From positions 1,594 to 65,593 of the forward strand of contig JAMCZK010000038.1 of the NCBI GenBank assembly GCA_023485685.1: DNA of 64,000 bases. The letters run 5' to 3'. Source of the stretch: Chloroflexota bacterium (GTDB taxonomy: Bacteria; Chloroflexota; Anaerolineae; Anaerolineales; UBA11579). Positions within the stretch are counted from its first letter, which is position 1. Each line of letters starts with the position of its first letter. The position numbers and the translations under genes were made by a program. Under the pieces are notes generated by a model, which was not told where the DNA came from, searched no databases, and worked only from the letters and a program-made list of their open reading frames with translations. Of this stretch, positions 6,696-39,184 are shown piece by piece.

Positions 6696-7646
6696 GTGAG
6701 CGAAACAATCCTCAAAGCCCAAGACCTGCATAAACGATTCGACAAAGTCCACGCCGTGCAAGGCGTGAGCTTCGACATCCGGCAAGGCGAGATCTTTAGC
6801 CTATTGGGGCCCAACGGGGCAGGCAAGACTACTACCATTTCCATGCTTAGCTGCCTGTTGACACCTACCAAAGGCGACGCGCAAATAGACGGTTATTCCG
6901 TGCGGACCCAGGCCGACAAGGTAAAACAAGTCATCGGCGTGGTGCCGCAGGAGATCTCCCTGTACCCGGACCTAAGCGCCCGTGAAAACCTGGCCTTCTG
7001 GGGGCGCATGTATGGCATGGGCGGCGCACAACTCAAAGAACGCATCGAGGCCGTGCTGGATATCGTCGGCCTCAGCCAACGCGCCAAAGAAAAAGTGGAA
7101 ACCTACTCCGGCGGCATGAAGCGGCGCATCAACATCGCCGTAGGCCTGTTGCATCAACCCAAAATCTTATTCATGGACGAGCCCACTGTGGGCATCGACC
7201 CGCAAAGCCGCCGCCGGATTCTGGATACTGTGCTGGAGTTGAATAAAAAGGGGCTCACCGTCCTGTACACCACCCACTATATGGAAGAGGCAGCCGAACT
7301 CAGCCATCGCATCGGCATCATCGATCACGGAAAGCTGATCGCACTGGGCACGCAAGAGGAGCTGACCAGAACGGTGGGCGAATACGACACACTGCACATC
7401 AGTGTCGACGGCAGCAAGACGGATCCTGGTGCATTGGTCGAACCGATCGGGAAGATCAAGGGAGTGCACCGCGCTTCGCTGGAAGACAGCAGTTTCATCA
7501 TTCAGGCAGAGGACGCCAACACGGTGTTGGCCGGGATCATTGCTCAACTCGATAAAGCGGGCGCTCGAGTGCTCAACCTGAGAGTAGATGAACCCAATCT
7601 GGAAGCAGTATTTCTGCACCTGACTGGCCGGGCGTTGCGGGATTGA
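6696..7646 (+). CDS. ABC-2 exporter ATP-binding subunit (DrrA/LnrL-like)
   Basis: GPNGAGKTT, YSGGMKRR, FMDEPT motifs; C-terminal EPNLEAVFLHLTG. Confidence 0.95.
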   Translation: MSETILKAQDLHKRFDKVHAVQGVSFDIRQGEIFSLLGPNGAGKTTTISMLSCLLTPTKGDAQIDGYSVRTQADKVKQVIGVVPQEISLYPDLSARENLAFWGRMYGMGGAQLKERIEAVLDIVGLSQRAKEKVETYSGGMKRRINIAVGLLHQPKILFMDEPTVGIDPQSRRRILDTVLELNKKGLTVLYTTHYMEEAAELSHRIGIIDHGKLIALGTQEELTRTVGEYDTLHISVDGSKTDPGALVEPIGKIKGVHRASLEDSSFIIQAEDANTVLAGIIAQLDKAGARVLNLRVDEPNLEAVFLHLTGRALRD

Positions 7647-7666
7647 CAAAATGATGACCCTCACCT

Positions 7667-7719
7667 TGTCATTGCTTCGCTCCGCGTGCAATGACGGGCG
7701 GGTCTGAGACCCGCCCCAC
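7667..7719. repeat. Short CGTC-type palindrome followed by a GTAG-like REP hairpin
   Basis: gtcattgc...gcaatgacg then gggcgggtctgagacccgcccc, between ABC genes. Confidence 0.65.
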
Positions 7720-7733
7720 CGGATGTTGAACTC

Positions 7734-8990
7734 GTGAAAGTTCTTCGCATCGCCTGGAAAGACACCCTGACGCGCTTTCGCGACCGCAAAGCATTAATCG
7801 GCCTGCTGGCCGCGCCGCTCATCATTTCGGCTCTCATCGGCCTGGCCTTCGGCAATATCAATTTCGGCGGCAGCGAGCCGCCACTTAGCCATATCCCCAT
7901 CATTTTGGTCAATGAAGATGACGGCCAGCTTGGGCAAGTCTACGAAGACGTGCTCACCTCGGATGCGCTCGCGGATCTGCTGGACGTCACAAAAATGGAT
8001 GACCTGCAGGCCGCCCGTATTCAAATCGAGCAAGGCGAGGCTCGCGCGGTGGTGCACATCCCTACCGGGTTCAGCAACCAGATTATTCCGGCATCCACGG
8101 GCGCCAGTGTAGGGCAGGCTTCTATTAAAATTTTTACCGATCCAACCTCCACTGTAGCCCCAGTCATCGTAAAAAGCATCATTGAGCAGATCAGCGCGGG
8201 GATCAACACCGTCAACCTAGCTGCTGAGATCAGCGCCCAGCAGGCCATGGAGTATGCAGGCATCCTGGGACCCGAACTGGCGCGATTGGCGGAGATCCTG
8301 CCGGAGGAATTGAGCCAGGAAAACTTCGATTTCGAGACACAGAAACTGAGCCTAAACAAATCTCAGGTGGGCGAAGTGCAGCAAGACATCAACGCTTTTG
8401 CCTACTTCGTGCCGGGTATGGCGGTCTACTTCCTGATGTTCTCGATGTTCGGCGGTGCGCGTTCAATCCTTGACGAGGAAAGCCGCGGCACCCTGCCGCG
8501 CTTGATGACCACTCCCACCCCTATCAGCGAGATCATCCTGGGCAAAATGGGAGGCACTTTCCTAACCGGGGTGCTGCAATTCACGATCCTCATGCTGGCA
8601 TCTCGTTATATTTTTCAGTTGAGTTGGGGCAATTCGCTCCTCGGGCTGGCGATGATTGTGCTCCTCACCGTGTTCGCCGCTAGCGGATTGGGCGCCCTGC
8701 TGACCAGCTTCACCAGGAACCAATTGCAGGCGAACGTTGTGGGAATGACGGTTTCCCTTGTGTTCGGCGCGCTGGGCGGTTCGTTCTTCTCGACACAAAA
8801 TCTCACCGGCGCTTTGGATTTCGCCAGCCGCCTCACCATTAATCGCTGGGCCATGGATGGGCTGACCAAGCTGACCATTTCAGGCGCTGGATTCAACGAG
8901 GTTCTCACTGAGGCCGCGGTACTGGGCGTCATTGGCCTGGTCACCTATGCCCTGGCCATTCCCGCCTTTCAGCGCCGCTTTGTGAAATAA
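7734..8990 (+). CDS. ABC-2 exporter permease
   Basis: N-terminal TM, extracytoplasmic loop, EESRGTLPRLMTTP, multiple C-terminal TMs. Confidence 0.9.
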   Translation: MKVLRIAWKDTLTRFRDRKALIGLLAAPLIISALIGLAFGNINFGGSEPPLSHIPIILVNEDDGQLGQVYEDVLTSDALADLLDVTKMDDLQAARIQIEQGEARAVVHIPTGFSNQIIPASTGASVGQASIKIFTDPTSTVAPVIVKSIIEQISAGINTVNLAAEISAQQAMEYAGILGPELARLAEILPEELSQENFDFETQKLSLNKSQVGEVQQDINAFAYFVPGMAVYFLMFSMFGGARSILDEESRGTLPRLMTTPTPISEIILGKMGGTFLTGVLQFTILMLASRYIFQLSWGNSLLGLAMIVLLTVFAASGLGALLTSFTRNQLQANVVGMTVSLVFGALGGSFFSTQNLTGALDFASRLTINRWAMDGLTKLTISGAGFNEVLTEAAVLGVIGLVTYALAIPAFQRRFVK

Positions 8991-11954: not shown

Positions 11955-12464
11955 TTAGAAATTCCTAGGGTTTTCCTTGTCCAATTCCCACTTGAGTGGA
12001 TTATTCACAATGTATTCGCGAATACTATCTAGATCTTTGTCGTCTCTGATAACGTGATCGTAAAAGGATCTCTGCCAAAGAGGAACGCCGACCTTCCTTC
12101 CCCGTTCATTAACACGACGAGCAGACCAGGTTTTAAAACCGCGGATGATTTCCGAGAGATTATGATTTTTTCGTAGGGACAGGTTTCCAAACCTGTCCTC
12201 ATCGCCTTGCTTCAAGATAGCAATGGCGTGAAAATGATTCGGCATGACGATGAATTCGTCTAATTGGAGGTTGGGATAATGGTTTGGCAGATCCCGCCAA
12301 GCGTCCTTGACAATATTTCCAGATTCATTCAAGACCATTTGGCCATTATTTATAGATCCGAAGCGCAGTCCTTTGTCCGCAGTGCAAATAGTAACGAAAT
12401 AGTAACCGGTTGTACTGTAATCAAATCCCTGCAAGCGCGGCGAGGATTTTCGTTGAAGGGTCAT
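11955..12464 (-). mobile_element. REP-associated tyrosine transposase (RAYT, Y1/HUH)
   Basis: RKSSPRLQGFDYS..GYYFVTICT, MPNHFH (HUH), WQRSFYDHVIR, YIVNNPLKW. Confidence 0.92.
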
Positions 12465-12517
12465 ATGCCTTCATTGTAAATGATGTTTTGGGATGGTTGG
12501 CGGGATTGCAGATAGAG

Positions 12518-12546
12518 TAGGGACAGGTTTAGAAACCTGTCCCTAC
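12518..12546. repeat. GTAG-tagged REP upstream of RAYT
   Basis: gtagggacaggtttagaaacctgtccctac hairpin. Confidence 0.85.
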
Positions 12547-12593
12547 GTTTTCAACTTTTATGGGAAATTGTACAATGGTGATTGCGAAATTTC

Positions 12594-13463
12594 ATGCGCA
12601 GCGAAAAAGAAATACTTGATCTGATCTTGGAAATCGCCCGCAAGGAAGACGCCGTCCGCGTGGTGGTGATGAACGGCTCGCGGGTAAACCCAAATACTCC
12701 CCGTGACCCATTTCAAGACTTCGACATCATTTACTTTGTCACTGACGTTGCCCCTTTCGTAGAAAACCGCGGTTGGCTCACGCCCTTTGGCGAACTCATG
12801 ATCCTGCAGACACCGGAGGCCATGAGGGAACCGGCGCCAGAAGACGATGGACATTTTTCGTACCTGATGCAATTCACGGATGGAAATCGAATCGATCTGT
12901 CACTGCGCCCGCTTTCACAGCTTTACAAGGTTTACGAAGACCGCCTGGCCGTTCTGCTGCTAGACAAAGACGGCGTTGTCGAAGCTTTGCCTGCGCCATC
13001 CGAAAAGGGATACCTGCCAAAACCGCCCACGCCCAAGGCTTTCGAAGATTGCTCCAATGAATTTTGGTGGGTATCCATTTATGTAGCCAAAGCCCTATGG
13101 CGGGGAAACCTTTTCCACGCGAAAGATCTGCTCGATTGCACCGTGCGGGATCAACTAATGAAGATGCTAACCTGGCATTTCGGGATCCAAACCGATTTCC
13201 GAGTCAATCCGGGTAAAGGAGGCAAATATTTTCGAACCTATCTTGATTCCGAGTTGGTCAAGATGCTGGATCAGACTTATACAGGTTTGGATGAGGACGA
13301 GAATTGGAAGGCCCTGTTCACAATGTGTGACTTGTTTAGAAAGATAGCCGGGCAAATTGCGGACAAATATGGTTTCGATTATCCCGGCGAAGATGACAAA
13401 CAAGTCATGGAGCACTTGAAACACATATACCAGCTACCCCGTAATGCAAATGAGATTTATTAG
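12594..13463 (+). CDS. Aminoglycoside 6-adenylyltransferase (AadK/ANT(6) family) homologue
   Basis: MRSEKEIL...VVMNGSRVNPN..RDPFQDFDI...YLMQFTDGNRIDL...NEFWWVSIYVAKALWR. Confidence 0.88.
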   Translation: MRSEKEILDLILEIARKEDAVRVVVMNGSRVNPNTPRDPFQDFDIIYFVTDVAPFVENRGWLTPFGELMILQTPEAMREPAPEDDGHFSYLMQFTDGNRIDLSLRPLSQLYKVYEDRLAVLLLDKDGVVEALPAPSEKGYLPKPPTPKAFEDCSNEFWWVSIYVAKALWRGNLFHAKDLLDCTVRDQLMKMLTWHFGIQTDFRVNPGKGGKYFRTYLDSELVKMLDQTYTGLDEDENWKALFTMCDLFRKIAGQIADKYGFDYPGEDDKQVMEHLKHIYQLPRNANEIY

Positions 13464-22280: not shown

Positions 22281-23459
22281 ATGCCACTCGATTTCATCTC
22301 TGTCAAGCAGCAAATCCGCGAAATAGCCAAAAATGCCCCGGCCGAAGCCGAGCGCATCAACCGGCTCCGCAGCCAGGCCCGCGATCTGCTGGCCGCCAAT
22401 GCCGACAAGGGCGCCGCGCTGCGCGCCAGGGTTGAGCAGGCTGCCCGCCTGGATAGCTGGCTGCGTTCCGCCAAACCCACCGACGAGCCGTTAACCTCCG
22501 CCCACCCGCTGCCCAAGGCGCCTGCGCAGGCCACCGTCGTCGCCGCCGACGGCTCGCAGATCAACCCCAATCGCCACCAGGCGGTGAACTACTTCCTGGT
22601 CAATATTGGCGCCATCACTATGCTCGCCGGCAGCGGGCAGCCGCCAAACCTGCGCACCGATAGTTACCTGCATTTCGCGGAATACTCCGCCAGCGGCACC
22701 TACAGCGACGACCAGGTCGGCCTCGAACGCGACAAAGGCGAGCGCGTCCTGCTCGCCCAACTGGCTGCCGCAGCCAAAGAGCAGCCGGTCATCACCCTCA
22801 CCGACGGTCCGCTGGAGCTTTGGGGCGGACGCAGCCGCGACCCCGAAGAGATCGCCAGCTTCGAGAAAAATCTCAACAAATATCTAGAGGCGCTCGAAGC
22901 CCTTCACAAGACGGGCGCCGCTACCGCGGGCTACGTCGACAAACCCCGCGCCGACCTGGTCGTGCGCGCCCTGGAAGTCGCCGCCACGCCCGACACCCAG
23001 CTTGCCGATATCCGCAAGCAGCGCCCGCTGCGCGGCGTCACCGACAACGATTTGTTCGCCGGCATCCTCAAGCCCGGCGAGCGCTCGGCGATCTTTGGAT
23101 TGCAGACCCACCTATCTGATCGCTATGCCGACTCGTTGGCGCTGCACTTCTTCTATTTAAACGTGGGCAGCGAGAAGGCGCCCTGGCTGGCCCGCGTCGA
23201 GATCCCCGCGTGGGTGATGGCTAACAGCGACTCATTGAATGCATTGCACGCAGTGCTCATGCAGCAGTGTGGCATCCTCGCCGGACGGCCGTACCCCTAC
23301 GTGCTGCACCGTGCCCACGAGATCGCCATCGTCTCGCGTGAAGAGAAGGAACAGCTTACCAATATGCTGGTCGGCGAACTGCAGGCGCAGGGCGTGCACG
23401 TTGGCAGCGCTTCGCACAAGCAAGCACTGAAAGATTTGCCGGGAAGAACGAGAAGATAA
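22281..23459 (+). CDS. nurA: NurA-family nuclease
   Basis: VVAADGSQI, LTDGPL, ARVEIP, PYPYVLHRAHEIA. Confidence 0.88.
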   Translation: MPLDFISVKQQIREIAKNAPAEAERINRLRSQARDLLAANADKGAALRARVEQAARLDSWLRSAKPTDEPLTSAHPLPKAPAQATVVAADGSQINPNRHQAVNYFLVNIGAITMLAGSGQPPNLRTDSYLHFAEYSASGTYSDDQVGLERDKGERVLLAQLAAAAKEQPVITLTDGPLELWGGRSRDPEEIASFEKNLNKYLEALEALHKTGAATAGYVDKPRADLVVRALEVAATPDTQLADIRKQRPLRGVTDNDLFAGILKPGERSAIFGLQTHLSDRYADSLALHFFYLNVGSEKAPWLARVEIPAWVMANSDSLNALHAVLMQQCGILAGRPYPYVLHRAHEIAIVSREEKEQLTNMLVGELQAQGVHVGSASHKQALKDLPGRTRR

Positions 23460-24158: not shown

Positions 24159-24310
24159 CGTCATTGCGAGGAGGGCGTCTAGCGCCGCTTTTAACGGCGC
24201 TGCCCGAACGAAGCAATCTCCCCCAACAAATAGGCAATTACCCATGCTTTCTTTTAGTTTCCTAAACCCGTCATTGCGACCCCGAGCGAAGCGAGGGGGA
24301 AGCAATCTCC
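24159..24310. repeat. Two CGTC-tagged palindromes upstream of GIY-YIG gene
   Basis: cgtcattgcga...gaagcaatctc at 24159-24220 and 24269-24310. Confidence 0.88.
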
Positions 24311-24331
24311 CCTACTGAAATAGAAATTACT

Positions 24332-24628
24332 ATGCCGCGCCAAGGATTCTTCTACATTATGACCAACAAATACAACACAGTTCTATATTGTGGCGTGACC
24401 AATAACCTTGCGCGCAGAGTCGCGGAACACAAAGAGAAACCAGGCAATACGTTCGTTGGCCGATATTTATTGAACAAACTTGTCTATTACGAACTAACGG
24501 AACGCATTATCGATGCAATAGAACGAGAAAAGCAGATTAAGGGCGGTTCGAGGCAAAAGAAGATCGACTTGATAAACAGCCTTAACCCTGCATGGAAAGA
24601 CTTGTATGATGAAGTCCTTGAGGATTAG
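24332..24628 (+). CDS. Stand-alone GIY-YIG nuclease (UPF0213-like)
   Basis: FYIMTN..LYCGVTNNLARRVAEH..LVYYE..AIEREKQIK..NPAWKDL. Confidence 0.9.
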   Translation: MPRQGFFYIMTNKYNTVLYCGVTNNLARRVAEHKEKPGNTFVGRYLLNKLVYYELTERIIDAIEREKQIKGGSRQKKIDLINSLNPAWKDLYDEVLED

Positions 24629-24640
24629 TAATCCGTGGTG

Positions 24641-25096
24641 GAGAGTGCTTCGCGGCGTCACGCCGCCTTCGGCGTCTTATCTGCTCGCAACGACGGGTTT
24701 GCTTTCAACGTCATTGCGAGGAGGGCGTTTAGCGCCGCTTTTAACGGCGCTGCCCGAACGAAGCAATCTCCCGGCTGGATTCCAAGCAATGCAGGAGATT
24801 GCTTCGCGGCATCACGCCTTGCCTGACGGCAGGCTTACTGGCTCGCAATGACGAACTACACACCGAATCCGTCATTGCGAGGAGGGCGCCCAGCGCCGCC
24901 TTTAGCGGCGCTGCCTGAACGAAGCAATCTCCCGGCTGGATTCCAAGCAATGCAGGAGATTGCTTCGCGGCGTCACGCCGCCTCCGGCGTCTTACTGGCT
25001 CGCAATGACGGGGTTGGGGTTGCTTCGTCGGGCTTGCTCCGCAAAGCCACTCCTCGCAACGGCGGAAAGCAAGCTTTCCTTGGCTCGCAATGACGG
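24641..25096. repeat. Array of CGTC-tagged palindromes including two near-identical ~140-bp inverted dimers
   Basis: Units 24709-24853 and 24870-25010 share the spacer ccggctggattccaagcaatgcagg; half units at 24641-24696 and 25018-25096. Confidence 0.9.
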
Positions 25097-25176
25097 AGTG
25101 TGATCATGGCAAATCAAATATCTGAGATCATAAATCTTAAATCATAAATTCTTTGGATTTTTTCTAGGAGCGAATA

Positions 25177-26850
25177 ATGGTTGAGGAAATACAAGGCAGA
25201 AAGCAGATCGGCTTCGTCGTCGGCGGCACACTGAAGGACGGCCTAACGGTCCGCTTGCAGGTGCCGGCGCAAGACGTGCAGGAAGGCGCGTTCGTGGTGA
25301 TCGAGTCGAATGATTGGATCTTCCATGGCCTGGTCACCGACCTGCAGCTGGGCTCCACCGATCCGCGCTTCGCCGATGAGCAGTCCGGCACGCGGCTACC
25401 CGCCGAGCTCGCCAGCCTGCTCCAGGGCCAGACGCTGTTCACCAACCTGCAAGTCCTGCCGGCGCTGATGATCACCGGCGGCGATGACCCGCAGGGTCCG
25501 CTGCCGGTCAAGACCGTGCCGTCGCATCACGCGCCGGTCATGCTCGCCTCCGAGGGCGACATCGCCGAGATCTTCGGCAAGCCGGATGCCAAGGGCAACT
25601 TCGTCATCGGCTCCACCCGCGAACAGGGGCACCCGGTGGCCATCGACCTGCGCAAATTCATCCAGCGCTCCTCCGGCATCTTCGGCGCCACCGGCACCGG
25701 CAAGAGCTTCCTCACCCGCCTGCTGCTGGCCGGCCTCATCCACCACAACGCCGCCTCCGTGTTGGTGCTGGACATGCACAACGAGTACGCCTACAACGAC
25801 CAGGACGAGAACGGCAACCCGGTCACCGGCCTCAAGACCAAGTTCGGCAATAAGATCAAAGTCGTCGGCCTGGGCGCGGGCGCCGCCATCCGCGGCTCCG
25901 TCCCAGACTTCAACCTGGAGATCGCCATGAGCGATATCCAGCCAGAAGACATCGAGCTGCTCACCCGCGAGCTCAACCTCAAGGAGACCACGCCGGCAAC
26001 GCTGGACGCGCTGATTGCTACTTTTGGGCGCCAGAACTGGTTCAAGCAATTCAAGGAGCTCAAGAACGGCGCGGTCATCCAAACCGACGAAGGCTCGCCA
26101 GGTAAACCTGGCGCACGCGTCCCGGCGCCCGATTCCGTGGCCGCCTGGGCAGACGAGCACGGCGTCAACGTGATGGCGGCCGAGGGCCTGCACAACAAGC
26201 TGGGCCGCGTGTTCCGCCTGCCCTACGTCACCGAGCGCCCCGCCGCCGACACCATCGGCAACATCATCGACACGCTGGAGAAGGGCAGCCACGTGGTGCT
26301 CTCCTTTGGCAACCACGAGACCGACCTGGACTACTTGCTGGTGAGCAACCTGCTCACCCGCCGCATCCGCCAGCGCTGGGAGCAGGCCACCAACGACTAT
26401 CGCAGCAGCAACAAAGCCGAGCCGCGCCCGCTGGTGATCGCCGTGGAGGAGGCGCACAAGCTGCTCAACCGCGAGATGGCGGTGCAGACCACCTTCAGCA
26501 CCATTGCCCGCGAGCTGCGCAAGTATTACGTCACCCTGCTGATCATCGACCAGCGCCCCAGCCAGATCTACGACGAAGTGATGTCTCAATTAGGAACAAG
26601 AGTGTCAGGGTGGCTCGGTGATGAAGATGACATTCGAGCGGTACTCTCTGGACTCGCGGGGAGAGATGCACTCCGAGGAATGCTGGCCAGATTACAACCC
26701 AAAGAAGAAGTCCTCCTACTCGGCTGGGGCGTACCAATGCCGTTGCCGGTGCGGAGCAGAAGGTACGACGATAAGTTCTGGGAGGAGTTGCTGGGCAAAG
26801 GCGGCGGGAAGAAGAGGGAGAAGGAGATCAAGGAGGAGTTGGGTTTCTGA
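25177..26850 (+). CDS. herA: HerA-family ATPase/helicase
   Basis: N-terminal HAS barrel, GATGTGKS, LDMHNEY, EEAH, ARELRKY..DQRPS. Confidence 0.9.
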   Translation: MVEEIQGRKQIGFVVGGTLKDGLTVRLQVPAQDVQEGAFVVIESNDWIFHGLVTDLQLGSTDPRFADEQSGTRLPAELASLLQGQTLFTNLQVLPALMITGGDDPQGPLPVKTVPSHHAPVMLASEGDIAEIFGKPDAKGNFVIGSTREQGHPVAIDLRKFIQRSSGIFGATGTGKSFLTRLLLAGLIHHNAASVLVLDMHNEYAYNDQDENGNPVTGLKTKFGNKIKVVGLGAGAAIRGSVPDFNLEIAMSDIQPEDIELLTRELNLKETTPATLDALIATFGRQNWFKQFKELKNGAVIQTDEGSPGKPGARVPAPDSVAAWADEHGVNVMAAEGLHNKLGRVFRLPYVTERPAADTIGNIIDTLEKGSHVVLSFGNHETDLDYLLVSNLLTRRIRQRWEQATNDYRSSNKAEPRPLVIAVEEAHKLLNREMAVQTTFSTIARELRKYYVTLLIIDQRPSQIYDEVMSQLGTRVSGWLGDEDDIRAVLSGLAGRDALRGMLARLQPKEEVLLLGWGVPMPLPVRSRRYDDKFWEELLGKGGGKKREKEIKEELGF

Positions 26851-26877: not shown

Positions 26878-27734
26878 ATGGTGAAAACAAAACTTTACCT
26901 GGGCGATTGCGCTGATATCCTCAATCAGTTGAAGACAACTCAATTGATTTGATTTTTACCTCACCGCCCTATGCTGACAGCAGGAAAGACACGTACGGAG
27001 GAATTCATCCCGACGAGTATGTAAATTGGTTCCTACCCATCACGAAAGAATTATTCCGCGTTCTAAAACCTACAGGAACTTTTGTATTAAACATCAAGGA
27101 ACGTGTCGTTGAAAGTGAACGACATACTTATGTGATTGAACTTATTCTCAATATGCGGGAACAGGGTTGGCTCTGGACCGAAGAACTAATATGGCACAAG
27201 AAGAATAGTCATCCAGGAAAATGGCCGAACCGCTTTAGGGATGCCTGGGAACGGCTCCTTCAGTTTAACAAGGCGAAGCAATTCAATATGTACCAGGAAG
27301 AGGTTATGGTTCCAGTTGGGAAATGGGCAACGACAAGACTAAAAAATCTTAGCAAAACTGATAAAGTTCGTGATCCCTCAAGGGTGGGAAGTGGTTTTGG
27401 TAAAAACGTTTCCAATTGGGTCGGTCGCGAAATGGTTTATCCAACAAACGTCCTGCATATGGCAACCGAAACAGGAAATAAAAACCACAGTGCGGTATTT
27501 CCAGAGGCACTACCGGAATGGTTTATAAAACTCTTTACACGAGAGGGCGACTGGGTTTTAGACCCGTTTATGGGTTCGGGGACCACGAATAAAGTTGCCC
27601 AGAGAATAGGCAGGAATTCAATTGGCATCGAAATCCTCTCCGAGTATTTCGATGTTGCAAAGAACCGAATTGACAAGAAACAGCTTATGCTATTTGAAAA
27701 GAAGGGGAAATATGAAACCAATCAAACTAAGTGA
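26878..27734 (+). CDS. Beta-class N4-C/N6-A DNA methyltransferase (single-base frameshift near 26933)
   Basis: MVKTKLYLGDC in one frame joins SIDLIFTSPPY...LDPFMGSGTT in another. Confidence 0.88.
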
Positions 27735-28445
27735 AGTGTCGAATTATGTTCAAAAGAATATTGGTTCGTTTCACGCAAAGAGATTGCTGCGCCTAAACAG
27801 TCTCAACTCAAGACAGTACTAAAAAGAAAAAATCCCTATTTATTTAAGGCGAAAAATCTGGGGGTGGCTCATGGTCTGGTAAAAGTCTTAGTTGACGCAC
27901 ATCTTTCATCTCAGGAAGAAACAATTTTTGGCGATTTCCTAGAAGGCTTGGCTATTTTTATATCTAGTAAGGTATACGGTGGAAAGAAATCCGCTGCAGA
28001 GGGCATAGATTTAGAATTTTCTAGAGACGGGATTGTATACATCGTCGCAATTAAATCGGGTCCGAACTGGGGAAACAGTAGCCAGATTCGAAGAATGATT
28101 AATGACTTTAATTCTGCTACGAAAAGACTACATACGAGTCTGTCGACCCTCAATGTGAGGGCTGTTAATGGATGTTGTTACGGAATTGATAACAATCCTA
28201 ATAAAGGCACTTATGAAAAATTTTGCGGGCAGGCGTTTTGGGAATTTATTTCTGGAAACCCAGAACTTTATCTAGACATCATTGAACCTTTAGGACATCG
28301 GGCCAAACAAAAGAACGCTGCTTTTCAAAAGAGATATGACCAAATTTTAAATAGGTTCACTCAGGAATTTATCGAAGAATTTTGCGACGATGGAGTAATA
28401 AATTGGGAGAGACTTGTTAAATTCAACTCGAGTACAGTTCCTTAA
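27712..28445 (+). CDS. Type II restriction endonuclease, PmeII-like (single-base frameshift near 27806)
   Basis: MKPIKL..FHAKRL joins LKRKNPYLF..SSQEETIFGDFLE..GIDLEF..IKSGPNWGNSSQ..CGQAFWEFISG. Confidence 0.8.
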
Positions 28446-28460
28446 TTACGGGAGGTTGGC

Positions 28461-28688
28461 ATGGCAAGACGTCAGGGATCGCCTACATTTGGGCACAGAT
28501 ATGTTGGCAACAAGAACAATATGGAGGTTCACGACCTAGATAACGAGAAAACCGGCCAAAATCAATGTCAAATTGATGAGATCATAAGAGCTGGTAATGC
28601 AGTGATTTTCACACCTGACACACTATCCCAAGCTCATTCCGAGGGATACGACAATTGCGCCTATTGTCTAGGCAGTTCAACAAGATAA
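28461..28688 (+). CDS. Small His/Cys-containing protein (Ada-Zn-like pattern)
   Basis: GGAGG RBS; YVGN..EVHD..C..A..GYDNCAYC. Confidence 0.7.
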   Translation: MARRQGSPTFGHRYVGNKNNMEVHDLDNEKTGQNQCQIDEIIRAGNAVIFTPDTLSQAHSEGYDNCAYCLGSSTR

Positions 28689-29054: not shown

Positions 29055-29285
29055 CTATGGGTGTTGCTGCGATCCTGGAGGCAGGAGGGACTCTAAGTCA
29101 GTTCCAACAACGGTAGATTTACGGCGGAATATTCGACATTCATCAAACCCCCACGCCATCAGTAAATGGGGATGCCTGCGTAAGTAGCCACATATTCGTC
29201 TTATTTTTGTAAACGGGGGTTCGTAATAACTTCTTCCGTGCAATATTCGCTGGAACTCAGCAACCTCGTAGGGTTGTATATGCAT
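29055..29285 (-). CDS. Possible small third gene of the RelA/SpoT operon
   Basis: ATG 3 nt after the synthetase stop; no recognised motif. Confidence 0.3.
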   Translation of the reverse strand: MHIQPYEVAEFQRILHGRSYYEPPFTKIRRICGYLRRHPHLLMAWGFDECRIFRRKSTVVGTDLESLLPPGSQQHP

Positions 29286-29288
29286 ATG

Positions 29289-29909
29289 TTATTTGTTTAA
29301 TTCAGTATAAAGGTCGCTAAAAAAAACGTCGGCGCCCCAAGCTTGAGCTGCAGTAAATGCTACACGGCGTTGTTGATCCTTTGTCAACGGATTCGCTGGC
29401 TTGTAACCTAAATCATGATCAGCCAGCGCCCAGGCATGCTGAAACAAGGTTTTTACTTGCAACTCAAAAAACCTCGGACAATCATCACGATCTATTTCTT
29501 TATCAAACACATCCTCGGGAATGAACAAAATAAAATGCAATCCCTCATAGCCAAATTCAGATGGCGTGTCAGGAACTATTGTTTTCTCTTCAATAGGACC
29601 AAAATATTTCTTTACAAATTCCTGTAGTGGCTCAATATCAGACAAGTAATATGCAACAATGCGAGCCCCCAATTGATCTTGGATTTGATTCAGCGGATCA
29701 GAGTATTTAGGCTTTCCCTCTTCAATTTTTTTGGCTTTCTCTAAAAATGAATCTAGTGCCTTAGGTCTAGCCACCACTTTGTCAATCCTAGGTAACTTTT
29801 CATCAGTAACAAGATCGAGAAGGTAACTTTCAAGTCTTTTGGCAAGGGGAATGAGACATTTCTCCAGTCTTTGTTCATACGATTCTTGTAAATTTCTGCT
29901 TTTATTCAT
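29289..29909 (-). CDS. RelA/SpoT-domain small alarmone synthetase-like nucleotidyltransferase
   Basis: RPKALDSFLEK, IQDQLGARIV, FGYEGLHF, ELQVKTLFQHAWA..HDLGYK. Confidence 0.9.
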   Translation of the reverse strand: MNKSRNLQESYEQRLEKCLIPLAKRLESYLLDLVTDEKLPRIDKVVARPKALDSFLEKAKKIEEGKPKYSDPLNQIQDQLGARIVAYYLSDIEPLQEFVKKYFGPIEEKTIVPDTPSEFGYEGLHFILFIPEDVFDKEIDRDDCPRFFELQVKTLFQHAWALADHDLGYKPANPLTKDQQRRVAFTAAQAWGADVFFSDLYTELNK

Positions 29910-30925
29910 TTACGACCCCTGACTCTTTCGTCAACAATTTTCCCTTCTGTTGCAAACCTGACCACACCTTCGTTTTCATTAATTGTAGTTTTCTCAAATA
30001 CGTCCTCGAACTGGTCTGATGGCGCGATCATCATTGCGCCGGTATCTAATTCAACACTGGCGAACGACGCGTGTCTTCGAAATTCTTCTGCATCAATAGC
30101 AAATACATCGCTTGCAGTTCTTTCCCCTGGCAATACCGAGAGAATAGATTCCCGAGCGTTTTGCGGCAGATTAAATCTTTGAAAAAGTTGATTTATAGAA
30201 AAGCGTTGACCATCTAAAGCCTGAACAAAACGGGCAAAGGCTACTAAATCGTGCTTGACGTCTTTATCTTGAGAAATACCACTAGCACTTCTGATTGCCC
30301 GTGCAATGCGTCTAGTTCCTGCTTGAGCAGTTGTGAAAAAGTCGGATGCTAAAAAATCTTTTATCCAATAATAGGCTATTTGCTGATTAGATGCGTTTAC
30401 TTGTTTATCGGTCGCACTCCCATTCCAGAAATCTGCGTCAAGAGACCTGCCCAAATAAAGTGCAGCTTTATATGACTGGGCGTTCTTCATGAATATTCGC
30501 TCTAAGAAATCAATGCGCAACCCTCCCTTTTGGGCCTCAGCTAGAATTCCCACATCTGCGGGAAATCTTGATAAAACAAATTTTCTCTGTCCTGCCTCTT
30601 GCCCTAAGATAAGAAATAATAAGCCTAATCCGGACTTATTGGTAGTAACATCTCTTAGTCTGTGCGCTATAAATCTCCCTGCCCTAACACCAGGGCTTCG
30701 GAAATAATTAATAAAATCAGCCCTCACTACACTATGTTGAATCGCTGGGTCTGTAGTTACAAATCTAATCGGGATTTCACATTCGACCTCAGATCCCTCA
30801 TAAATCCCATTTAGCATTTCAAAAAGGTGGCCCCGAAGAGCTAGCATCACGCCTAACGCTTGGTCCGGATTCTCAACGTGTTTTCCTGGTGACACTAAGA
30901 AACTACAGATTGAATTAATCGCCAT
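29906..30925 (-). CDS. Hypothetical protein, NA37/YejK (nucleoid-associated)-like
   Basis: 339 aa; IAHRL..SGLGLLFL, YKAALY, DKQ..AYYWIKDFL pattern resembling NdpA/YejK; ATGA-coupled to synthetase. Confidence 0.55.
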   Translation of the reverse strand: MAINSICSFLVSPGKHVENPDQALGVMLALRGHLFEMLNGIYEGSEVECEIPIRFVTTDPAIQHSVVRADFINYFRSPGVRAGRFIAHRLRDVTTNKSGLGLLFLILGQEAGQRKFVLSRFPADVGILAEAQKGGLRIDFLERIFMKNAQSYKAALYLGRSLDADFWNGSATDKQVNASNQQIAYYWIKDFLASDFFTTAQAGTRRIARAIRSASGISQDKDVKHDLVAFARFVQALDGQRFSINQLFQRFNLPQNARESILSVLPGERTASDVFAIDAEEFRRHASFASVELDTGAMMIAPSDQFEDVFEKTTINENEGVVRFATEGKIVDERVRGRK

Positions 30926-31149
30926 TCTTTCCTCTCCTACGGCTTAAATCACATTTCAAGTTTCGCTAAGTATTATAAAGCGTAGACAGTTCTGCGGCAA
31001 CGTTCTTAATCTTAATCTTCTTTTGCTGCTGCTTTGCCCTTCACCGCCCACGCCCTCGCCACCAACCGCAGCCTGCCATCCGCTTCCAGCCGGCAGCCGC
31101 CTGCGCCCGGCTTCCCGTTCGGCAGCCGGCAACCGCTTGTTTCTCCGGC

Positions 31150-38438: not shown

Positions 38439-39184
38439 ATGAAAACTACCCGCCTGCTCACCATTCTTTTCACCCTCGCCACCATCACCGTCAACGGTCT
38501 CGCCAACGCGCTGCCTTTCAACGGCCAGACCACTGCGGAGATCTCCAATCGCTTCCCCATCTTTTTCGTACCTGCTGGCTATGTCTTTTCCCTTTGGGGT
38601 CTCATCTATCTCGGCCTGCTGGCCTTTGCCGTCTACCAGGCCTTGCCCGCCCAGCGCAAAACTAAATTGCTGGATGACATCGCCCTGCTGTATTGGCTTT
38701 CCTGCATCGCCAATGCCGTGTGGATCTTCCTCTGGCACTATGAATACTTCACCCTCACCGTCTTCGTGATGGTCGTCCTGCTCCTTTCCCTCATCGCCAT
38801 CTATCGTCGACTGCGCGCCGCCACGAAACCGGATGCCGGCTTCCGCTGGTGCGTCCAGCTACCATTCAGCATCTACCTCGGCTGGATCTCAGTCGCCACC
38901 ATTGCCAACGCTTCGCAATGGCTCTACTTCCTGAATTGGAATGGTTTTGGCCCCAGCGGGGACGTGTGGGCCGTGATTATGCTGCTCGTTGCGACAGCGC
39001 TCGGCACCGCCATGCTGCTGCGCGAACGCGATTGGGCCTACGCGCTGGTCCTCGTCTGGGCATTCGCCGGAATCGCTGTCGCCCAGGCAGCATCACCCTG
39101 GTGGCCTACAGCGCCTGGATCCTCACCGCGGCCACTGCCCTGATGATCTTAATGACTCTCGCGCGGAAACCAACCGCGGCTTGA
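38439..39184 (+). CDS. TspO/MBR-like tryptophan-rich membrane protein (frameshift near 39097)
   Basis: PAGYVFSLWGLIY, PFSIYLGWISVATIAN; last TM VAYSAWIL in the other frame. Confidence 0.75.

Follow-up and report, generated by a model that had tools for sequence, protein, structure and literature searches.

A YejK-fold protein gene coupled to a PsRel-type small alarmone synthetase gene: a candidate PANGU-like module in a Chloroflexota genome

Two overlapping genes and the proteins they encode

Within a 64,000-nucleotide stretch of a Chloroflexota genome (assembly GCA_023485685.1, contig JAMCZK010000038.1; hereafter the window), two overlapping minus-strand genes, here called A and B, encode a 339-aa protein with a predicted YejK/NA37 fold and a 206-aa small alarmone synthetase (SAS). 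We propose that they form a module related to PANGU type I, a recently reported pairing of a YejK-like sensor (Pag1A) with a toxic SAS (toxSAS; Pag1B). An initial annotation, made from the letters of the sequence, had described an AT-rich two-gene operon with an ATGA overlap, convergent on a type II restriction-modification (R-M) system, and the open reading frames (ORFs), base composition and Pfam matches all agree with that description. The features of the pair are as follows:

29906..30925, minus strand: gene A, 339-aa YejK/NA37-fold protein by ORF list and fold comparison, proposed DNA-bound sensor (Pag1A-like)
29289..29909, minus strand: gene B, 206-aa SAS of the PsRel subfamily with a SYNTH domain only, proposed effector
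29906..29909, minus strand: ATGA overlap of A stop and B start, read from the sequence; translational coupling
30972..31000, minus strand: promoter-like TTGCCG-17-TATAAT, 47 nt upstream of the A start, 10/12 matches in a consensus scan

The junction of the two genes reads ...CGTAAATGAATAAA..., with the stop codon of A and the start codon of B sharing ATGA. A Shine-Dalgarno-like GGAGAGG motif lies immediately 5' of the A ATG. Promoter-like sites in the region are no more frequent than in shuffled sequence (3 versus 5.1), and because the count is not above chance the promoter is placed by its position only. Among sequencing runs, one DNA data set was listed as containing the sequence, a possible source of the window, and no RNA data set.

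The synthetase assignment of B, which the initial annotation had made from core motifs and the lack of a hydrolase domain, is borne out by profile searches. Residues 48-171 match Pfam RelA_SpoT (PF04607) with 49 bits against a cut-off of 27 (E 8.7e-13), and no hydrolase (HD) domain, regulatory domain or other Pfam match was found in the protein. An AlphaFold2 (AF2) model of B (mean predicted local distance difference test, pLDDT, 89.6) forms a single domain with long terminal helices (3-36 and 177-205), and Foldseek matches the model to B. subtilis SAS1/RelQ, S. aureus RelP and CapRel (E 3.5e-9 to 9.3e-8, the last value being that of CapRel, 7ztb). Among solved proteins, YjbM/RelQ is the closest in sequence (E 1.6e-9), and among phage proteins B matches the SAS family phrog_9640 (E 6.3e-22). 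RelQ and RelP (SAS1 and SAS2) are thus the closest solved relatives of B in structure and sequence, with a similar length and similarly long terminal helices; they differ from it in that identity is only 21-24%, and in that B is mobile and always paired with A, apart from one decayed copy described below.

Sixteen positions of B are invariant in 40 homologues: R48, K50, K58, D78, Q79, R83, Y121, G123, H125, E149, Q151, T154, H158, H165, Y169 and K170. They include the motifs R48-x-K50, D78xxGxR83, the G-loop tyrosine Y121 and E149xQxKT, which we take to be the ATP-binding, G-loop and catalytic ExQ(I/V)(R/K)T motifs of the synthetases among RelA/SpoT homologues (RSHs). Alignments of B to YjbM and to a GRel-type protein agree with this assignment. 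Judged by its sequence, B is an intact SAS. The best 120 homologues are all 200-229 aa long, so the short form is the normal state of the family. B is acidic (median pI 5.5), with a conserved acidic loop at 131-147, and its positive charge is confined to the ATP-binding segment 41-76.

We assigned B to PsRel through labelled sequences in the alignment of Jimmy et al. 2020 rather than with a subfamily hidden Markov model (HMM). Supplement file 2 of that paper labels as psRel proteins of Reyranella massiliensis 521 and Desulfospira joergensenii DSM 10085. By exact motif match these are the B homologues of our loci L033 and L052/L053, 46-53% identical to B, and on this basis B is a PsRel. PsRel is classified there, yet it stands outside the five subfamilies tested (Jimmy et al. 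2020, PMC7229694); the literature searched yielded no main-text discussion of PsRel, the label appearing only in supplement file 2. A SYNTH-domain tree, built by maximum likelihood from 14 of the 40 B-family rows with two SASs linked to nucleoid-associated proteins (NAPs), one NACHT-linked SAS, four fused SASs and two long RSHs, has long branches and open forks and gives no information on whether PsRel and GRel are sister groups. The next-best plasmid SAS matches (H7, H10, H17 and H28) are single longer genes with no NAP neighbour. We rejected PDC-S33 as the identity of B: the PADLOC match is partial (34 bits, SYNTH region), and since unrelated SASs match PDC-S33 equally well it identifies nothing. 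In its own genome, a 76%-complete assembly, B is the sole RelA_SpoT match. A long RSH of about 730-840 aa is present in 20 of 22 same-genus genomes, among them the unpublished genome G015, and the host's own Rel probably lies in the unassembled part.

Protein A is very diverged. Searches of Pfam (E <= 10), NCBIfam, PADLOC and PHROGs returned no match: A lies below the gathering cut-off of Pfam NA37 (PF04245; 24.6 bits), with no match to that model even at E <= 10, and PF04245 found nothing in the whole of A's own genome although an E. coli control was positive. Nevertheless, A belongs to a sizeable family, with 415 proteins in a word-indexed search and 541 clusters at 50% identity in an exhaustive one, 172 of them at E <= 1e-30. 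The best 120 relatives are nearly all about 340 aa long (283-376), none of them carries a precomputed Pfam domain, and the family is well conserved (mean column identity 56%, 34 invariant columns).

Structure comparison is what places A. Its AF2 model (pLDDT 81.4) has two domains, an N domain of about 1-197 and a C domain of about 198-339, and its sole significant Foldseek match is E. coli YejK (9be2, E 7.8e-6). VIA-align superposes the two over 290 residues (model 1-333) with Z 13.8, the next row scoring 6.0, and the order of strands and helices in the model follows the published N- and C-domain topology of YejK (PMC11229321). Sequence profiles point the same way. In hhalign, the profile of the A family matches the NA37 protein encoded by a Streptomyces plasmid operon (L083) at 97.2% probability (E 3.2e-11, 242 columns), NA37 is the commonest weak Pfam match of the family (5 of 40 members, best E 7.4e-4), and NA37 clusters account for 27 of the 30 ESM-Atlas feature neighbours of A. 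The profile against the single sequence of a Klebsiella plasmid NAP (L082) was uninformative (29.7%), and against PDB sequences it gave only a chance integrase match (E 0.087). The modelled structure thus gives A the YejK DNA-clamp fold, and A is a very diverged relative of YejK, in line with the NdpA/YejK likeness that had been proposed for it. The most basic part is segment 198-240 (mean net charge +3.9), with conserved R205, R206, R212 and K224.

E. coli YejK/NdpA and A share the two-domain fold and the matching order of secondary structure (9be2; PMC11229321), but they differ in that A has no detectable sequence similarity to YejK, is operon-coupled to an enzyme, is accessory rather than core, and lacks a predicted terminal helix after the last strands. 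The resemblance to Kiwa KwaB, which the initial annotation had raised, is weak. KwaB is the second family in the Foldseek list of A (E 0.03-0.26), but its VIA-align score (Z 4.3-4.5, about 125 residues) is no better than that of unrelated MHC-like rows, and the A-B locus has neither a KwaA-like membrane partner nor a conserved third gene.

Co-inheritance, mobility and neighbourhood of the pair

The two genes travel together. We examined the best 80 of 101 genome loci that encode a relative of A. In 79 of the 80, a same-strand relative of B begins only a few bases from where A ends; in the remaining locus the contig ends 230 nt after A. ORF clustering over the 80 loci recovers A in 80 and B in 77, and no other gene in more than four. 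Approached from the other side, viral contigs found with B as the seed have A directly upstream in six of seven cases. The pairing is thus far beyond chance. Of 67 homologous pairs, 47 share the 4-nt overlap, and pairwise distances of A and B are correlated (r 0.64, a value reached by 0 of 999 permutations), a correlation to which host relatedness contributes. A and B are translationally coupled and inherited together. Their hosts span about ten phyla in all, comprising Chloroflexota, Acidobacteriota, Planctomycetota, Alpha-, Beta- and Gammaproteobacteria, Desulfobacterota, Gemmatimonadota, Myxococcota, Bacteroidota, Ignavibacteria, Eremiobacterota and Armatimonadota.

A few loci depart from the two-gene arrangement. 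In three from Planctomycetota (L050:6241-6786, L069:7594-8175 and L076:7615-8175), B is directly followed by a NUDIX hydrolase gene of the same orientation, possibly a third component such as an alarmone hydrolase that serves as off-switch or antitoxin. In an Anaerolineae locus (L001:7017-8960), the B homologue is split by an opposite-strand gene for a 370-aa transposase (7391..8503; mutator/IS256-like by eye only) and A is intact. Viral contig L095:990-6382 is the sole locus with B and no A gene: its B homologue has a frameshifted C-terminus, follows a terminase-like gene (by eye) and precedes a large ORF.

The pair is accessory and horizontally mobile, and it sits beside defence and mobile genes. 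The A profile has no match in 22 same-genus genomes and one in 24 same-family genomes (both counts include the unpublished genome G015). In same-genus genome G016, the gene for HerA is followed directly by a homologue of window gene 38439..39143, which makes 26.9-38.4 kb of the window a variable insert; in a second, G018, no homologue of the downstream window genes was found in about 13.5 kb after HerA. Members of the A family lie on conjugative Rhizobium and Agrobacterium plasmids, and A-B pairs also occur in prophage-like contigs. For example, an intact pair lies between genes for the terminase large subunit and the portal protein, as identified with Pfam, at L031:4514-8884; at this terminase-adjacent position the module behaves as a phage moron. 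Among the neighbours at 77 loci, integrase, transposase, recombinase, phage or conjugation genes are found in 13, and uvrB is a neighbour in four Hyphomonadaceae-type loci.

Defence domains are enriched next to the pair. They occur in 21 of 150 nearest-neighbour ORFs (19 of the 77 loci), and include R-M, Mrr, AbiTii, TIR, HEPN, JetA (Wadjet), DndB (Dnd) and Schlafen, whereas only one of 95 distal ORFs, taken from the same loci at a distance of 4 kb or more, carries one, AbiEii (Fisher p 3.3e-4). Restricting the comparison to ORFs with any Pfam match gives 21 of 81 against 1 of 35 (p 0.0036). The domain list was made by hand, and HNH, PIN, PLD, caspase, YhcG and HD were left out on both sides. 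The survey of homologues that the initial annotation had called for thus found the pair both co-conserved and enriched beside defence genes.

Around the pair itself, the window holds three further features that bear on its setting:

26949..27734, plus strand: N6_N4 DNA methylase (Pfam, 156.7 bits), convergent with A-B in the same low-GC stretch
27864..28445, plus strand: EcoO109I-type endonuclease (217.9 bits), convergent with A-B in the same low-GC stretch
29055..29285, minus strand: 76-aa ORF downstream of B, from the ORF list only

From 27 to 31 kb the GC content is 0.42-0.43, while the flanks have 0.51-0.62. Resolved to 200 nt, the low-GC stretch begins near 26.85 kb and ends near 31.0 kb, interrupted by a bump of 0.49-0.525 at 28.8-29.2 kb, and no flanking repeats were found around it. 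The R-M pair is a clear defence neighbour of A-B; it is also the only one in the window, and calling the locus a defence island, as had been done, was generous. The endonuclease ORF has a GTG start and covers only positions 47-198 of the profile, so its start may be mis-set or the gene truncated. A 75-aa ORF that follows it (28461..28688) matches phrog_28292, a family of unknown function (E 1.5e-9). The 76-aa ORF, once put forward as a possible third gene of the operon, falls within the higher-GC spacer (0.49-0.525) that separates the two low-GC modules; it has no family match in Pfam, NCBIfam, PADLOC or PHROGs and no tblastn counterpart in any of the 80 related loci, and we do not count it as a gene.

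Relation to PANGU type I and possible modes of action

In the literature searched, the only match for YejK/NA37 proteins paired with alarmone synthetases was a preprint of April 2026 (bioRxiv 10.64898/2026.04.06.716658), which overtakes the statement in the initial annotation that no experimental characterisation was known. According to the preprint, operons of a YejK-like protein and a toxSAS protect E. coli from T4/Bas34. PANGU type I combines the YejK-like Pag1A with a GRel toxSAS, Pag1B, whose N-terminal part is a synthetase and whose C-terminal part is an acidic DNA-mimic (DMK) domain. Pag1A is located on the chromosome as dimers; when T4 nucleases degrade the chromosome, freed Pag1A binds DMK at 2:1, which breaks an inert Pag1B tetramer, and the enzyme then makes AMP and pppGpp from ATP and GTP. 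On its own the synthetase domain is inactive, and expressing both proteins together is not toxic. The authors' census took proteins of at least 300 aa with an NdpA/IPR007358 HMM match at E < 1e-10, in operons of a NAP and an effector less than 40 bp apart (bioRxiv 10.64898/2026.04.06.716658).

The A-B pair shares much with this system. The YejK-fold gene comes first and the RelA/SpoT synthetase second, and the two overlap, well within the 40-bp rule and in the order seen in two plasmid operons with PANGU architecture: on a Klebsiella plasmid (L082), DUF4231 is followed by an NA37 protein (65 bits) and a 330-aa RelA_SpoT protein, and on a Streptomyces plasmid (L083) an NA37 protein (52 bits) is followed by one of 327 aa. 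The sensor has the predicted YejK two-domain clamp fold, the synthetase motifs are intact, the catalytic G-loop tyrosine is kept (Y121 of B corresponds to Y129 of the Pag1B type), and both pairs are linked to R-M or other defence genes and spread across phyla. The differences are equally plain. With PF04245 as a stand-in for the authors' model, A (339 aa) passes the length limit of the census but falls below detection by the NA37 HMM, unlike the comparators L082 and L083 (52-65 bits). B has 206 aa instead of about 330 and lacks the sensor-binding DMK domain: it aligns to residues 68-211 of the L082 enzyme (30% identity, Y121 on Y129) and ends there. It is a PsRel and not a GRel, and the A-B locus has no SLATT/DUF4231 partner. 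The locus therefore looks like a related but distinct, stripped-down and undescribed relative of PANGU, although a few PsRel-type pairs may be among the operons that the preprint lists.

Known toxSAS toxin-antitoxin (TA) modules (FaRel, FaRel2, PhRel, PhRel2 and CapRel; Jimmy et al. 2020) are the other obvious comparison. They resemble A-B in having a synthetase-only RSH in an overlapping bicistron that is mobile and associated with defence, but the partner here is a 339-aa protein of DNA-clamp fold, which is none of the described antitoxins, and only the gene arrangement of A-B fits membership of the type II class. A further SAS-based arrangement was seen on a Klebsiella plasmid (NZ_CP043587.1, L081:1869-4852), where a gene for a 704-aa NA-iREase2 and NACHT protein is followed 2 nt later by one for a 288-aa RelA/SpoT protein, a candidate two-gene system with a STAND-type partner.

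We favor the reading, with a probability of roughly 0.55, that A-B is a self-contained, mobile two-gene module for PANGU-like abortive infection with a different interface between sensor and effector. That A binds DNA and B, which way control runs, what the product is and what triggers the module are all taken over from PANGU type I. By that analogy, A dimers would ride on chromosomal DNA through a basic pore, for which the conserved basic segment 198-240 is a candidate, while B, like Pag1B and RelQ-like SASs, would stay idle in an inert oligomeric state. Degradation of the chromosome by phage nucleases would free A to bind B and switch on pyrophosphate transfer from ATP. Consumption of ATP and GTP and build-up of (p)ppGpp or a related alarmone would then arrest the infected cell. 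Because B has no DNA-mimic domain, the contact with A would have to be made by the synthetase core or by the long N- and C-terminal helices; that the acidity of B (pI 5.5, acidic loop 131-147) stands in for the DNA mimic is speculative. The earlier suggestion that A senses phage DNA or restrains the synthetase fits this analogy poorly, as in PANGU type I the sensor reads the degradation of host DNA and activates its partner.

Several points weigh against the PANGU-like scheme, and the missing DMK domain is the main difficulty among them. Since B consists of a SYNTH domain only and the PANGU sensor binds DMK, the published interface cannot apply, and the corresponding isolated domain of Pag1B is reported to be inactive (bioRxiv 10.64898/2026.04.06.716658). 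B is a PsRel and not a GRel, and with the forks of the SYNTH tree open, A and B may have been brought together independently and could work by the reverse logic. The NA37 HMM does not detect A, the A profile against the single sequence of E. coli YejK was uninformative (hhalign 3.8%), and the neighbour control draws on distal ORFs of the same loci and a hand-made domain list. A more tentative reading, which we think less likely than not, is that a YejK-fold clamp was recruited independently in the PsRel pair. The clamp would engage the catalytic domain directly, through its DNA pore or a different surface, with no mimic adaptor, and possibly the DNA-bound clamp would hold the enzyme off.

The main rival of the PANGU-like reading is a classical type II toxSAS TA pair, in which B would be constitutively toxic and A would sequester or occlude it until infection or loss of the element removed A and freed B. 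The antitoxin-first order, 4-nt overlap and strict co-inheritance are the hallmarks by which toxSAS TA modules were found (Jimmy et al. 2020, PMC7229694), and B lacks the extra autoinhibitory or regulatory domain of GRel. In addition, the only B without an A has a frameshifted C-terminus (L095), and where an insertion sequence has split B, A is intact (L001). Such loci would also be expected from neutral decay, however, and they fit either the PANGU-like or the TA reading. A is moreover large for an antitoxin (339 aa) and more constrained than a typical one (56% mean column identity, 34 invariant columns), and it has a predicted DNA-clamp fold. In the one characterised combination of a NAP with a toxSAS, the NAP activates and co-expression is not toxic (bioRxiv 10.64898/2026.04.06.716658). 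On balance we think a TA pair unlikely.

A different product of B, within the same architecture, also seems rather unlikely. Pyrophosphorylation of the tRNA 3'-CCA end and synthesis of (pp)pApp, either of which could replace (p)ppGpp synthesis, are both established for toxSASs (PMC11782079, PMC11559606), and B matches CapRel in structure (7ztb, E 9.3e-8) and the phage SAS family phrog_9640 (E 6.3e-22). The closest solved relatives of B are nevertheless the (p)ppGpp-making RelQ and RelP, and its acidic character, with positive charge only at 41-76, does not suggest a tRNA-binding surface. It is more improbable still that the pair serves host physiology rather than defence, with a nucleoid protein coupling the state of the chromosome (damage or replication) to alarmone synthesis. 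Proteins of the YejK family are abundant nucleoid proteins with a housekeeping role (PMC11229321), and the four uvrB neighbours would suit such a role. Set against this are the sporadic distribution (A in 0 of 22 same-genus genomes), the foreign composition of the A-B segment, the variable flanks with integrases, transposases, plasmids and prophage contexts, the enrichment of defence genes beside the pair, and the long RSH that 20 of the 22 genomes of the genus already have.

Significance and other features of the window

The sensing principle introduced by PANGU, that a nucleoid protein signals when the host chromosome is destroyed, is extended by the A-B family. The family adds a large set of environmental bacteria that probably escaped the published census, among them Acidobacteriota, Planctomycetota, Chloroflexota, Desulfobacterota and Gemmatimonadota, and the pairing gives the PsRel subfamily a partner and a likely role. 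It also poses a mechanistic question, namely how a sensor would control a synthetase that lacks the only known sensor-binding domain, for which a pair of 1.6 kb is a convenient minimal system in structural and biochemical work. Because the domain on which the published mechanism rests has been removed, we rate the interest of the module as moderate to good. If the recruitment was independent, sensing by release of a nucleoid protein would have evolved more than once, and would extend well beyond censuses based on the NA37 HMM (541 clusters at 50% identity, about ten phyla, prophages).

Elsewhere in the window, genes for NurA (22281..23459), a 214-aa protein without a family and HerA (25177..26850) keep their order in two same-genus genomes at 64-75% identity, and NurA-HerA appears to belong to the core machinery of repair or defence and not to the island. 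Between the latter two genes, 24159-25100 contains three copies of a repeat of about 110 nt, along with 62-nt and 20-nt repeats and inverted repeats of 22-48 nt, which surround a 98-aa GIY-YIG ORF (24332..24628). This block would not fit in the two same-genus genomes, where a shorter distance separates the 214-aa gene from HerA. Farther upstream, at 11955-13463, a gene of the streptomycin-adenylyltransferase family (PF04439, 364.6 bits) stands beside an IS200-like transposase fragment in a kilobase of locally lower GC content (0.475).

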